Positions 14,124-52,059 of a DNA stretch of 64,000 bases are shown in pieces. The stretch comes from Escherichia phage FL20. The notes under the pieces were generated by a model, which ran no database searches, had not been told where the DNA came from, and saw nothing but the letters and a program-made list of their open reading frames with translations. Position 1 is the stretch's first letter; each line of letters begins with the position of its first letter. Position numbers and translations under genes: made by a program. The stretch lies in the sequence record PP400781. One strand, 5' to 3'.

Positions 14124-14128
14124 TAAAT

Positions 14129-14152
14129 AGGGGCTGTATGCCCCTTATTTTT
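14129..14152 (+). terminator. rho-independent terminator after uvsW
   Basis: AGGGGC-tgtat-GCCCCT hairpin plus TATTTTT. Confidence 0.7.
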
Positions 14153-14165
14153 ACGGAGATTAAAA

Positions 14166-14402
14166 ATGATTAGTTTTAAACGATTCTTAGCCGAGGCGGT
14201 TATTGATGGTTTCATGAATAAAATCTATTCTTGTAATACTATGGAAGGTTTGGACGAGCTTGAAAAATATTATGAAAAGCGCAAGAAAGAGACCGATCTC
14301 AAACCGTCAGATGATATCTCTATTCGTGATGCAATCGCAGGTCGAAGAAAACAGTTAGAGAGTGAAAATGAGCCGGAAGAGGAGCCGGAAGAGGATTTTT
14401 AA
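14166..14402 (+). CDS. uvsW.1: UvsW.1-like small protein
   Basis: 78 aa ORF directly after uvsW, acidic C-terminus; synteny. Confidence 0.55.
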   Translation: MISFKRFLAEAVIDGFMNKIYSCNTMEGLDELEKYYEKRKKETDLKPSDDISIRDAIAGRRKQLESENEPEEEPEEDF

Positions 14403-47121: not shown

Positions 47122-48354
47122 TTATACTGCCATTTGAGCGGTGATTGCTGGATGGCTTTGATAGTTGTGAATTTTAAAGTCTTTCGGAGTCTTTGTCAAT
47201 ACCTCATCTAAAGATTTAAATTCCGGCAACTCAATCGTTGGTTTATCAAACGGAACACGGCTTAACTGTTCCATAACTTGATCAAAATGGTTTTTGTAAA
47301 TGTGAGTATCTCCACCAGAGAAAATCAGTTCTCCTACCTCAAGATCACACATTTTCGCTATGATGTGAGTTAACAGCGCATAGCTGGCGACGTTAAAGGG
47401 CAAGCCTAAAAAGCTGTCTACGCTTCTCTGAAACCACATACAAGACAGTTTACCTTCATTGACGTAGAATTGCACGAAAGGATGACATACACCCAATACA
47501 GCATTATGTGTTCCTTGTACGTTCCATGAGTCAATAATGATCCGGCGATCCGTTGGATTGTTTTTAATTTGTTCAATCACGTTTTGTAACTGGTCTTCCC
47601 AAATCTTCTGGCGATAGACATATTCTTCATCGTCTTTAGTGCTCGATGTGTCTACGTCCATACTAGCAAAGATCGTGGTATCTGGTGCTAAAATATCCCC
47701 ACCCAGATAATCACTATCAAGCAGATAACCGAAATAACCATCATCTACCCATTCCTGGAATCCCCACAAGCAATATGCATCATTAACAAAATTAGATTGA
47801 GTCTTCCAGTGGTCTGCTACTAAGAATAGATTATACTCAGAATCAAACTCTTCATAACGCATACCACGCCAGATAGCACATAAACGGTCTTCTGTTTCAT
47901 TGGTTGGCGTAAAGTCTTCTACCCACGGGTGCTTAAATGTATGTGCATATTTGCTCTTAACGCGCTTAATTTTGATTTCACCGTGTGGATGAATCGGTTT
48001 GCGTCGCCATGCCATACCATACATATTGCCGACATTATAACCATTGAATCGCAAAGGATTCTTTTCTTTCATATCAAGACAGTTGCCGCGCCAAATGTCG
48101 AAGGCTTCTTCGTCAAACTTACCGCGTGTAATTTCCTGTAAGCGACGGCGGTCAAGTGATCCCTCCATAAACCATAGCAATTCACCAATTACAGAGGCTG
48201 TAGCCATCTTTTTAGTGGTCAGTAAGGGGAAACCCTTGCTTAAGTCAATTCGCATTTCTGCACCGAATTTAGAGAGCGTACCTATCCCCGTTCGGTCTTC
48301 ACGAGGCCAGCCATTATCAAGAACATCACGCAACAGTTTCAAATATTCTTTCAT
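47122..48354 (-). CDS. td: thymidylate synthase with ~125-aa insertion
   Basis: ThyA motifs CHPFVQFYV, GKLSC, QRSVDSFLGLPFN, ASYALL; extra residues between the YGxxWR and DQL..V..IKNNPTDRRII regions. Confidence 0.85.
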   Translation of the reverse strand: MKEYLKLLRDVLDNGWPREDRTGIGTLSKFGAEMRIDLSKGFPLLTTKKMATASVIGELLWFMEGSLDRRRLQEITRGKFDEEAFDIWRGNCLDMKEKNPLRFNGYNVGNMYGMAWRRKPIHPHGEIKIKRVKSKYAHTFKHPWVEDFTPTNETEDRLCAIWRGMRYEEFDSEYNLFLVADHWKTQSNFVNDAYCLWGFQEWVDDGYFGYLLDSDYLGGDILAPDTTIFASMDVDTSSTKDDEEYVYRQKIWEDQLQNVIEQIKNNPTDRRIIIDSWNVQGTHNAVLGVCHPFVQFYVNEGKLSCMWFQRSVDSFLGLPFNVASYALLTHIIAKMCDLEVGELIFSGGDTHIYKNHFDQVMEQLSRVPFDKPTIELPEFKSLDEVLTKTPKDFKIHNYQSHPAITAQMAV

Positions 48355-48622
48355 CCCACATCACCTTTTTCTTATTGATTGCTTTCTTACGCAGTTTTGC
48401 TACTGTCTCGTCAATATCGATAAAGACAACGCCACGGTCGAATACAGTAGCAGGTCTTGAGATATCGCTATTTTCTTGCACAGGAAGCCATGATGCGCTC
48501 GCTTCATCATAGAGATATTGTAAACCGTAATAATCTACGGCTACTGCGTAGTTTTCACTGGTAGCCGTCCATAATTGAATAATACCGACTTTCATTATTG
48601 TTCCCGTCCGCAATGTAAGCAC
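48326..48622 (-). CDS. hypothetical protein (98 aa)
   Basis: ORF between frd and td. Confidence 0.4.
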   Translation of the reverse strand: MLTLRTGTIMKVGIIQLWTATSENYAVAVDYYGLQYLYDEASASWLPVQENSDISRPATVFDRGVVFIDIDETVAKLRKKAINKKKVMWDERIFETVA

Positions 48623-48688: not shown

Positions 48689-49270
48689 TTACGCCTTCTT
48701 ACGTTCTAAAATTTGTTCGCTGATCAGGTAATTATCAAGGAAGTAATTATGTTCTTCTTTGGTTACAAAGTCAAAATACAATTCCTGAATCATTTCCTTA
48801 GATATACCAACATCATATTCAAATGGATCGTTGATCCCTGAACGTTGAACATACGTTAACACAATACGGTCCGCAAAGTCAACTGCTTTTTCAATCAGGG
48901 AAGGTCCACCAATAACGCTTACCAAACCTTGCAATTTCTCTATGACTTCTAATAATTCCTTCAATCCACCATCATTAGTAATCGCGGTATACACATCAGG
49001 TTGTTCGCCGTTTTTTGCTGTCGGTGCTGGCTTACTGGTATCGGTACTAACAACCACATTCACACGACCTTCCAGTGCTTTAGGAAGACTTTCAAAGGTA
49101 TTGCGTCCCATTACAACCGCCGCAAGATCAACATCTCCCATAGTGCGCATTTTAAAGTTTTCCATGTCCTTTTTGATTGGACGACCCCACGGTAAACCGC
49201 CTTTAAAACCAAAAGACCAATTTTCATCCGACATTTTAGTGTCACCAATCGCAAATACACATTGAATCAT
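48689..49270 (-). CDS. frd: dihydrofolate reductase
   Basis: 193 aa; GLPWGRP motif; T4 frd position. Confidence 0.85.
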   Translation of the reverse strand: MIQCVFAIGDTKMSDENWSFGFKGGLPWGRPIKKDMENFKMRTMGDVDLAAVVMGRNTFESLPKALEGRVNVVVSTDTSKPAPTAKNGEQPDVYTAITNDGGLKELLEVIEKLQGLVSVIGGPSLIEKAVDFADRIVLTYVQRSGINDPFEYDVGISKEMIQELYFDFVTKEEHNYFLDNYLISEQILERKKA

Positions 49271-49285
49271 AATATAAATCTCCTA

Positions 49286-49615
49286 TCAAACCAGCTTGAG
49301 ATAGTTTTCGTTAACGTTTTCTTCTGTGATCTCGGTTTTAAACTCATTACCAACATCAGGAGAAACATAATAGCGTTCGGAATAATCACGCCACATTTTC
49401 AGTAGGCTGACACCAACATTAACACCATTTTCCCAGAAACGGAAGATAATTTTATTTGCGGTGTAGCGGTAATCGCTTTGAATCAAGCTGCCATCACCGC
49501 GACGTGATTCATAAACCGTAATACATTCACGGTTAGCGGCTTTAAGACATTCTTCAATAGTGCCGCATGAGATAATTTCGGTTGAGTCGTTTACGATTTG
49601 TTCTACAGTCCACAT
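49286..49615 (-). CDS. hypothetical protein (109 aa)
   Basis: ORF downstream of PeSL; frd.x position. Confidence 0.5.
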   Translation of the reverse strand: MWTVEQIVNDSTEIISCGTIEECLKAANRECITVYESRRGDGSLIQSDYRYTANKIIFRFWENGVNVGVSLLKMWRDYSERYYVSPDVGNEFKTEITEENVNENYLKLV

Positions 49616-49674
49616 AATATAATCCTCTCTTTGTTTCGATGTGTGTATTATACATTACCACATCAGCATGTCAA
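49616..49674 (-). promoter_or_regulatory. PeSL-like early promoter cassette
   Basis: TTGACA / 16 nt / TATAAT / leader CACACATCGAAACAAAGAGAGGATT. Confidence 0.6.
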
Positions 49675-49701
49675 CACCTTTTTCATAAAATTTTAGTCAA
49701 T

Positions 49702-49726
49702 AAAAAAGCCTCCCCGAAGGAAGGCT
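49702..49726 (-). terminator. rho-independent terminator after gene 32
   Basis: Minus-strand hairpin AGCCTTCC-TTCG-GGGAGGCT followed by 6 U. Confidence 0.7.
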
Positions 49727-49736
49727 TTAAAATTCA

Positions 49737-50738
49737 TTACATCCCTAACAGAGCGTCAAGATCATCCAGATCAGAAGCGGAGGAAGTACCGCCACCCAGA
49801 TCCAGCGATGCCATCAGGTCATCAGCGGAAGAATCTAACGCCGTGCTAGCTGCGTTAATACCAACTACAGTGCTAGCTGCGTTAATACCAACTACAGTGC
49901 TAGCTGCGTTAATACCAGAATCGAATGCATTCATCTGTGCGTCAAAATCGTCAAGCTGGCTGTTAATCGCTGCCGCAGCACTGGAAGCCGCAGCACCAGC
50001 TACCATAGAAACGCCCATAGTTTTCTTAAATTTTGTTTCCAGTTCATCGAACGGTTTAAACTGGCTAGGCGCTACAATCTCACTCAGATCAACCATGTTT
50101 TCCATCAGATATTTCTGATATGCTTCGTCTTCAATTTTCGGAAGCTGTGATTGCTGCATGAAACGAGAATCATCATAGTTCTGGTGTTTATCAACCTTCT
50201 TAGCTTTCAGGAGGAAGTTAGCACCAGAGAACACACAAGTTACATCGACCGGAACTTCGCCCATATCGGTATTCACGTTCACCATTGCAACGATCTTATC
50301 ATAAATTTTCTGACCGAAGCGGAATTTGAATACCTTACCTTCATTTTCTGGTGCTTGAGGATCTTTCAGTACCAGAATATTTGCGTAGTAAGACGCTTTA
50401 CGCTTAATCAGTTGCCATTCGGTTTTATCGGTATTGTACAGGTCTTTTTCGTTAATATATTTGCACACAGGGCAAGAATCAAAATCACCGTGGGTGCTGG
50501 AGCAGTTTTCCCAATACCATTTGCCATTAACTTTGAAGGAATGGTTTACCAGTTTCACAATCGGCAGACCGTCTTCTGTCTTAGACGGCAGGAAGCGAAT
50601 CAGGGCTTCACCGTTACCTGCTGCATCAGTCTTAATCTTCCACTCTTTTGGATCTTCTTTGGAGAAACCGTTGCCACCTTTCAGTGCGGCCAGTTGAGCT
50701 TGCAGTTTGGAGCTATCTTGACGACGAAACATGTTCAT
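49737..50738 (-). CDS. 32: single-stranded DNA-binding protein gp32
   Basis: N-terminal KxKx-like basic region, [13 protein letters not shown], zinc ligands [16 protein letters not shown]; acidic C-terminal domain. Confidence 0.9.
49843..49916. repeat. 27-bp tandem repeat (about 2.7 copies) in gene 32 C-terminal domain
   Basis: GTGCTAGCTGCGTTAATACCAACTACA repeated; encodes GINAASTVV x2-3. Confidence 0.85.
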
Positions 50739-50798: not shown

Positions 50799-51395
50799 TT
50801 AATTGCTTGTCAATACTTTATCAATTATATCTAACAGTTTTGGCTTTCTATTTTCAAATTCTAACATCTCTTCGGGAGAAATGTCAACTACTTCTGTTTT
50901 GTTGAAAAAGTTTGGGTCTATAGCATCAGCAACAAAGTTTCTCGCAAGTGCTGCCGCTTTCTCATGAACATATATTCCCAAATATATCAACTTCTTTCTT
51001 TCGACCTGAATATTGGCAACATATTTACCATCTCGTTTATAAAGACTAACACCGATATATTCAGACGATCGACCTTTCTGTTTACCCATATTTCTTGAGT
51101 TTTGTTGCTCGTTCGCATCTCTCAAGTTTTCAATCCGATTATCTGTTATAATTCGGTTAACATGGTCAACGTATTTTGGCATGTATCCATGATGCATAAA
51201 GAAAATTATTCTATGCTCTTTATGATGTTTACCATCGATACACACCAATCTGTATCCATGACTAGGATTAACTCCACCCGCTCTAGATCCGACTTTATGC
51301 TTTCTGTTTGTCGATATCTTGCGAATCAGCTTACCGTTATCATATTTAAAGAGTTCATGACAACGAGCATACAATTCAGGATCATATGTTTTCAC
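50799..51395 (-). CDS. HNH homing endonuclease with AP2 DNA-binding domain
   Basis: HNH core GYRLVCIDGKHHKEHR...VDHVNRIITDNRIENLR; AP2-like YIGVSLYKRDGKYVANIQ; between 32 and 59 where T4 carries segG. Confidence 0.8.
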   Translation of the reverse strand: MKTYDPELYARCHELFKYDNGKLIRKISTNRKHKVGSRAGGVNPSHGYRLVCIDGKHHKEHRIIFFMHHGYMPKYVDHVNRIITDNRIENLRDANEQQNSRNMGKQKGRSSEYIGVSLYKRDGKYVANIQVERKKLIYLGIYVHEKAAALARNFVADAIDPNFFNKTEVVDISPEEMLEFENRKPKLLDIIDKVLTSN

Positions 51396-52059
51396 CTTTT
51401 AACCTCGATATTTCTTTACACTCTTTAACTACTTTAACAAATAATGCTCTTGCTTTTGCGGCGTCAATAACAAGTAGTTTCTTGTACGCCTTCATTTTAA
51501 CACTATAAGTTTGCCAAATCAAGTCTTTGGCTACCTTGTCGTGTTCGTCGATTATATTTAGAAAGCTATCTAACAACATAAACGACTCAAACGATATAAT
51601 CCGATTTTGCAGTAGTTTAAAGATACCGCTAGTTTCGGTTGCGGGATTATATGTAATTAGCTCTTTAAGAGTAACCCCGCGTTTCTCTGAGAAGTATACA
51701 AGACTTTTAATGTCATCGTCAAATCTTGTTGCTGCATCTGTTATCTTTCCTATGTATTCCATATAAAAGCCGTATGCGTCAACATCAGTGATTTCACCTA
51801 CCCATGCATCGGTATTAGCTACCAGATTGCTTAGGAATAGGAAGTATAATTCTCTTAGATTGTACTTTTCCGCTAATTTTGCGAAATAATACTTATCTCT
51901 GCGTTTATTGAATGCGGCATCAGATAACCGCATCCTCCAATTATATTTTACGCAATCATAACGCCCGTTCATATGAGCTTTCATCATGCAATATAACATA
52001 TACACAGATTTAGCATTAATTCGCATATCTGGATCTGGAGGAAGACGGTTTCTGATCAT
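51382..52059 (-). CDS. 59: helicase loader gp59
   Basis: GKSVY.LY...HMNG.YD..KYNW.MR.SDAA..KRRDKY.F.KL similar to T4 gp59. Confidence 0.9.
   Translation of the reverse strand: MIRNRLPPDPDMRINAKSVYMLYCMMKAHMNGRYDCVKYNWRMRLSDAAFNKRRDKYYFAKLAEKYNLRELYFLFLSNLVANTDAWVGEITDVDAYGFYMEYIGKITDAATRFDDDIKSLVYFSEKRGVTLKELITYNPATETSGIFKLLQNRIISFESFMLLDSFLNIIDEHDKVAKDLIWQTYSVKMKAYKKLLVIDAAKARALFVKVVKECKEISRLKGENI

Follow-up and report, generated by a model that had tools for sequence, protein, structure and literature searches.

A perfect in-frame 27-bp tandem repeat of variable copy number in the gp32 tail spacer of the Krischvirus Escherichia phage FL20

The DNA considered here, referred to below as the window, is a stretch of 64,000 nucleotides from Escherichia phage FL20 (sequence record PP400781). 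FL20 is a Krischvirus (RB49-like) whose DNA is 94-98% identical to that of RB49, JSE, Phi1 and other Krischvirus genomes; no mention of this phage was found in the literature searched. The gene at issue, gene 32, has the neighbours it has in the replication region of T4-like phages, with gp59 (51382-52059) upstream and dihydrofolate reductase (DHFR, 48689-49270) and thymidylate synthase (47122-48354) downstream. Its main features, all on the minus strand, are the following:

49737-50738, minus strand: gene 32, encoding a gp32 of 333 aa (open reading frame list, Pfam PF08804, matches to the T4 and RB69 gp32 structures in the PDB, XAO15410.1).
49914-49979, minus strand: amphipathic helix, residues 254-275 (AlphaFold; conserved L262, D263, F265 and F272; tail alignment with T4/RB69-type proteins).
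49740-49835, minus strand: distal acidic tail, residues 302-333 (low column entropy in 65 Krischvirus-type gp32 proteins; family-wide motifs).
49705-49728, minus strand: intrinsic terminator hairpin just 3' of the gene 32 stop codon (terminator scan; kept in relatives and annotated in Makalu_001 and G2248).

The identity of the gene, which an earlier note had read as gene 32 from the DNA letters, is borne out by several comparisons and by the position of gene 59 upstream. The open reading frame matches Pfam family PF08804 with an E-value of 1.1e-51 (176 bits against a cut-off of 26.8), and in the PDB it matches T4 gp32 (8gme, E 6.8e-106) and RB69 gp32 (E 7e-103); the gp32 structures 8gme, 2atq, 2a1k and 1gpc are all matched, with E-values from 1e-94 to 1e-106. 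The 333-aa product and NCBI XAO15410.1 (Escherichia phage FL20) are identical. The ATG at 50738 is preceded, at a distance of 7 nt, by a GAGG Shine-Dalgarno sequence.

The DNA-binding hallmarks of the family are also present. The zinc motif Cys-X3-His-X5-Cys-X2-Cys reads C79-SST-H83-GDFDS-C89-PV-C92, and in a set of 61 diverse gp32 sequences the three cysteines C79, C89 and C92 never vary, while H83 is retained in at least 90% of them; the T4 motif spans C77 to C90 (PMC535899). An internal KRKTS-type motif is found as K112-R113-K114-A-S116, with K112 and R113 invariant among the 61 sequences. At the N-terminus, taking the K3-R-K-S-T7 "LAST" motif of T4 as the reference for the basic cooperativity segment, FL20 has MFRRQDSS, which keeps two basic residues (conservation of F4 and R6 is at least 90%) and is not the T4 pentapeptide.

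Several gene 32 annotations deserve a comment of their own. Two in-frame ATG codons, two codons apart, occur at the start of the gene (50732-50738, minus strand; MNMFRRQ...). The second, at 50732, aligns to M1 of T4, and the gp32 of relatives has been annotated from either ATG, giving 322 or 324 aa. Phage ECD7 (KY683735.1) lacks one base that G2248 and JK32 have directly behind the KFKKVKGVS codons, and its gp32 is thereby shortened to 252 aa. This removes the whole C-terminal domain, the sequence of which is intact downstream in another frame; the cause is a sequencing error or else a natural truncation resembling gp32-A. The gp32 of Enterobacteria phage phiC600P9 is annotated with 392 aa and a second Pfam domain (PF05798), and has the look of a fusion with the gene next to it or of a gene-calling artefact involving that gene.

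The surroundings of gene 32 hold further items. The thymidylate synthase frame (47122-48354, minus strand) encodes 410 aa, compared with about 265-290 aa for an ordinary ThyA/Td. Its Pfam match is split into two stretches, the second covering residues 253-410 at profile positions 109-266, and this split implies an in-frame insertion of about 140 aa in the middle of the enzyme. Two small open reading frames lie between gene 32, frd and td, at 49286-49615 (109 aa) and 48326-48622 (98 aa); both are on the minus strand and have no Pfam match, and a perfect sigma-70 consensus promoter (49647-49674) stands upstream of the former.

Within gene 32, Tandem Repeats Finder (TRF), run on the whole window, reports an array with a period of 27, 2.8 copies, 100% matches, no indels and a score of 150. 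It is the strongest tandem repeat of the window, the second-ranked array scoring 59, and a direct reading of the letters gives the same array:

49843-49917, minus strand: 27-bp tandem array of 2.8 perfect copies (TRF and sequence; the 27-bp and 54-bp gaps of the relatives fall exactly here).
49890-49916, minus strand: copy 1 in coding order, G275-V283, GINAASTVV (coordinates counted from the CDS start at 50738).
49863-49889, minus strand: copy 2, G284-V292, GINAASTVV (sequence and translation).
49842-49862, minus strand: copy 3, consisting of the 21-bp core only, G293-T299, GINAAST (sequence, TRF and alignment).

The earlier placement at 49843-49916, with about 2.7 copies of a 27-bp unit, was therefore correct to within one base. 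The coding-strand unit, GGTATTAACGCAGCTAGCACTGTAGTT, encodes GINAASTVV. As 27 bp are nine codons, the array is in frame, and it encodes residues 275-299. The third copy runs on into the unique residues A300-L301, and nucleotide identity with the other copies stops at 49843. The array also supplies the longest perfect periodic self-match of the window, 48 nt; by analytic calculation about 4e-22 such matches would be expected by chance, and none of 30 shuffled versions of the window gave a periodic self-match above 14 nt. The locus thus carries more than two head-to-tail, highly identical copies, beyond what chance provides, as is characteristic of a variable-number tandem repeat (VNTR). The count of three units in FL20 rests on one deposited assembly.

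A much smaller in-frame repeat in another acidic tail was seen elsewhere in the window: the 12-bp unit GAGCCGGAAGAG, present in 2.2 perfect copies at 14370-14395 (plus strand), encodes EPEE-EPEE at the acidic C-terminal end of an open frame of 91 codons (14127-14399).

The gene 32 repeat lies in the C-terminal (A) domain, in a stretch rich in Gly, Ala, Ser and Thr upstream of the acidic end. In the 61 diverse gp32 sequences the tail follows one order: an Ala-rich segment, a helix, a variable spacer, an [AE]DD[LF]M motif, a Ser/Gly-rich run and a DLDDLL tip. The two motifs of the distal acidic tail, [AE]DD[LF]M and DLDDLL, are family-wide, and A255, L262, F265 and F272 of the helix are at least 90% conserved. 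FL20 has both the docking helix (L262-D-D-F265...F272) and an acidic tip, which reads DLDDLDALL, and the repeat sits between them, as the earlier description of an Ala/Ser-rich segment just before the acidic C-terminus had it. By the tail alignment, the FL20 helix 254-275 is the counterpart of T4 gp32 helix 248-270, which docks on the 2A domain of the helicase Dda through L262, D263 and F265 (PMC11551737). The repeat starts three residues after F272, the equivalent of T4 F270, at the junction of the docking and acidic segments. The T4 segment that follows, about 273-301, is invisible in the structure and has been proposed to regulate ssDNA binding; the two segments have been proposed to function separately and, owing to their adjacency, in a mutually exclusive way (PMC11551737). 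The acidic C-terminal domain competes against nucleic acid for the gp32 core (PMC11811875). That this domain contacts other replication and recombination proteins, as the note also stated, agrees with the literature (PMC11551737, PMC12893549, PMC535899). Because the repeat itself is a non-conserved spacer between contact motifs and is predicted to be disordered, it probably serves as a tether rather than as a surface for contacts.

The array differs in length among relatives. In ten aligned relatives, the gaps at the repeat are exactly 27 or 54 bp, which divides the alignment as follows:

One unit: phiS, SAP, Makalu_001, G2248, ECD7 and JK32.
Two units: G2494, MIZ4, JSE and RB49.
Three units: the window (FL20) only.

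A targeted search of all phage records brought together 58 Krischvirus records, 46 of them exactly 27 bp shorter than the window across the repeat (two units) and the other 12 exactly 54 bp shorter (one unit); none of the 58 equalled the window in length here. The FL-series phages FL04, FL15, FL37 and FL38, found as phage-collection matches, have two units. At the protein level, tail lengths counted from INSQLDDFD fall at 57-60, 67 and 76 residues for one, two and three units among 65 distinct Krischvirus-type gp32 proteins from a large protein collection, and the 76-residue tail is unique to FL20. The reading frame and the conserved distal tail are kept in every one-, two- and three-unit allele. 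The length polymorphism that the repeat had been expected to show is thus found between phages, as one or two units in relatives and three here.

The three-unit allele is rare. A diagnostic pattern for at least three units, requiring the TVVG junction twice at a distance of 27 bp, had no match in IMG/VR and seven in the JGI metagenomes, all of them unrelated repeats with a 27-bp period and none in gp32. The exact 333-aa gp32 was not found in the assembly index, and its protein cluster contains the 333-aa form only from NCBI phage FL20. Logan contigs are built with k=31, at which a perfect self-overlap of 48 nt is not resolvable. For this reason, little weight attaches to how seldom three-unit alleles occur among Logan-derived proteins.

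Some krischviruses carry an insert between genes 59 and 32. In FL20 it contains an open reading frame for an HNH endonuclease of 198 aa (50799-51395, minus strand), with a PF13392 match and a weak match to an AP2-like DNA-binding domain. An insert here occurs in only a subset of krischviruses, nine of the phage-collection matches (among them G2494, MIZ4/5, Skers, ELT4 and Makalu_002), and in one Logan contig (SRR23253372). All carriers have at least two repeat units, and the 12 one-unit records all lack it. An association between insert and repeat number is unproven, the sample being small and the genomes related.

The alleles of the relatives suggest how the array arose. Apart from the repeat, the last approximately 300 nt of gene 32 differ between FL20 and JSE by a single base, and FL20 has the extra 27 bp. 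JSE and G2494 hold two identical 21-bp cores 27 bp apart, which are an obvious substrate for slippage or unequal recombination. The first unit is different in the other two-unit alleles: GIAAASTVV in RB49, GTTAASTVV in MIZ4 and GITAASTVV in the rest. The earlier note took the perfect identity of the copies to imply a recent expansion; this identity, together with a three-unit state in this phage only, does fit a recent step from two units to three, and so does the near-identity to JSE. The step is not datable by means of a near-identical sister genome, since none was found and even the nearest records share only about 96-97% identity across 24 kb.

Loss of units can be read from the same alleles. 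The one-unit sequences of SAP, phiS and Makalu_001 are the exact products of a core-to-core deletion in two-unit alleles of the JSE, GITAAST and MIZ4 types, and these sequence comparisons suggest that contraction probably happened several times. The opposite route, a plain doubling of the unit in some extant one-unit allele to give the two-unit alleles, was rejected, as the ACT-GTA-GTT (TVV) junction is absent from one-unit alleles. Since the junction is not derivable from an extant one-unit allele, the original step from one unit to two must be older or more complex than plain slippage.

A second duplication with a 27-bp period occupies the same gene 32 site in another allele type, TSAIAASVS/TAAIAASSS, the copies of which have diverged. 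It is carried by phages KFS-EC and pEJ01 and by contigs of 38 Logan blocks (e.g., SRR23253372). The site is a recurrent hotspot for unit gain and loss. Two apparently independent duplications of nine residues could hint at a constraint on length, or they could reflect common ancestry and conversion.

The segment in which these changes occur is the most variable of the protein. Among the 65 Krischvirus-type proteins, the spacer columns reach an entropy peak of 1.0-1.45 bits, compared with 0.04-0.24 bits per 15-residue block through residue 255, and both flanks of the spacer are conserved. The pattern is read here as relaxed constraint, although diversifying selection could lie behind it instead. 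The length range is equally wide: from the Phe at the helix end to the Leu of the tip, 14-45 aa were counted across the 61 diverse gp32 sequences, and the 54 of FL20 are the longest sampled. The shorter interval between the helix and [AE]DD[LF]M measures 4-5 residues in T4/RB69-type proteins and 14, 23 and 32 residues in krischviruses with one, two and three units.

AlphaFold, run with the family alignment, predicts a confident core, the helix 254-275, a coil and a short terminal helix (325-332). The pLDDT stays below 50 over residues 277-324 except at residue 289, which covers the whole repeat save G275 and I276; low pLDDT is a mere proxy for disorder. The composition of the repeat is limited to G, I, N, A, S, T and V. 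By prediction, the spacer therefore has the properties of a linker, namely low complexity, poor conservation, variable length and no stable structure, and the model suggests that it is very probably disordered in the real protein.

All of this argues, with good confidence, for a genuine in-frame VNTR in a tolerant, probably disordered tether of gp32, which most likely originated by slippage or unequal recombination and is most likely nearly neutral. The starting point would have been a two-unit allele of the JSE/G2494 type with its paired 21-bp cores, and the third unit would have been gained by replication slippage or unequal homologous recombination between the cores. Every unit lengthens the low-complexity spacer by nine small uncharged residues (GINAASTVV), and this spacer would tether the conserved partner-docking helix to the conserved distal acidic tail. 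Given how much change in length and sequence this spacer can absorb, the third copy is most likely of little or no consequence for fitness and at most slightly alters the reach of the acidic tail; its neutrality is assumed.

A less probable reading, to which only a small chance is given, is that copy number is adaptive. The one-, two- and three-unit alleles would then form a natural series of tether lengths, in which the length sets how the acidic tail competes with ssDNA for the core, and thereby tunes its gating of ssDNA binding and filament turnover, or sets how independent the tail is of the docking helix. As part of the same doubtful proposal, the alleles would be functionally distinct variants matched to hosts or to alleles of partner proteins. 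The location of the repeat speaks for it, where the counterpart of T4 residues 248-270, which bind Dda, joins that of the acidic residues 273-301 (PMC11551737), as does the competition between the acidic domain and nucleic acid for the core (PMC11811875). Exactly nine residues are added by both types of duplication, and two-unit alleles are the commonest (46 of the 58 records), but shared ancestry can account for this predominance. Moreover, no part of gp32 is less conserved in sequence than the spacer, functional gp32 proteins have spacers ranging from 14 to 54 aa, and three units were seen in just one genome. If tuning were nevertheless true, recurrent expansion and contraction would be a fast-evolving means of fitting the central organiser of the replisome to hosts or partner alleles.

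Somewhat less likely still is that the third unit is an artefact of sequencing or assembly, the true count being two and the assembler having gone round the short repeat loop once too often. The allele does come from a single deposited genome and is absent from the 58 other genomes, IMG/VR and the JGI metagenomes. However, the array measures just 75 bp with a self-overlap of 48 nt, so that reads of at least 150 bp and k-mers of at least 55 should span it. FL04, FL15, FL37 and FL38, with their two units, give no sign of routine over-counting in the FL series. The insertion is also precise, in frame and perfectly periodic, and relatives provide independent evidence of copy-number change at the same position. 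That the repeat serves instead as an antisense gene, as a structural element of the DNA or RNA, or as a regulatory site inside gene 32 can practically be dismissed: there is a 159-aa antisense frame across the repeat (49639-50118, plus strand), but it has no Pfam match and lies across a gene that is itself strongly supported, the fold of the repeat DNA is no better than that of its shuffles (z = 0.70), Rfam gives no family at threshold and weak matches solely on the terminator hairpin, the promoter and terminator scan finds nothing within the repeat, and one-unit relatives do without the extra sequence altogether. The position of the terminator at 49705-49728 likewise implies that the repeat is no part of the 3' regulatory signals.

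The preferred reading, a near-neutral VNTR in a tolerant tether, can be set against better-known systems. The A domains of T4 and RB69 gp32 share with FL20 the Ala-rich segment, the amphipathic helix with its L/D/F residues, a low-complexity spacer, [AE]DD[LF]M, the Ser/Gly run and the DLDDLL tip. They differ from the krischviruses in the short interval between the helix and EDDFM, which in the latter changes by whole 27-bp units. The gp32 C-domain has been called apparently unstructured and prone to divergence; its length differs between T4 and RB69, with a difference of five residues in the Ser cluster (PMC12893549, PMC535899). No description of a perfect tandem repeat at the gp32 spacer was found in the literature searched.

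Bacterial SSB proteins offer a second comparison, although gp32 is a monomeric, Zn-containing OB-fold protein of unrelated sequence with an internal docking helix in its tail. The linkers of bacterial SSB proteins differ between species in length and repeat content. In E. coli SSB, as in gp32, the DNA-binding core and the partner-binding acidic end are conserved, and the low-complexity linker is poorly conserved (PMC11811875). The resemblance is one of working principle, not of family membership.

With coding VNTRs that arise by slipped-strand mispairing or unequal recombination, the array shares the head-to-tail arrangement, identical copies, a unit length that is a multiple of three and a count that varies between strains. 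It differs from them in its low number of copies, one to three, and in lying in an essential replication gene and not in a gene for surface structures or host interaction. Classical contingency loci switch genes on and off by a change of frame or of promoter spacing, whereas no such switching takes place here. A phase-variable locus was rejected on these grounds, as the unit is nine codons long and all alleles keep the frame and the distal tail.

The gene 32 array is ordinary length variation in a place where the C-terminal domain of gp32 was already known to be prone to divergence, and its value as a discovery is small. The site is handy as a strain-typing marker for krischviruses, varying in steps of 27 bp. 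The natural spacers of 14, 23 and 32 residues also provide a length series with which the proposal of separate, mutually exclusive halves of the C-terminal domain (PMC11551737) could be tested. For the biology of gp32, the result confirms that its tail spacer is a tolerant and fast-changing tether, as the comparison of T4 with RB69 had suggested.
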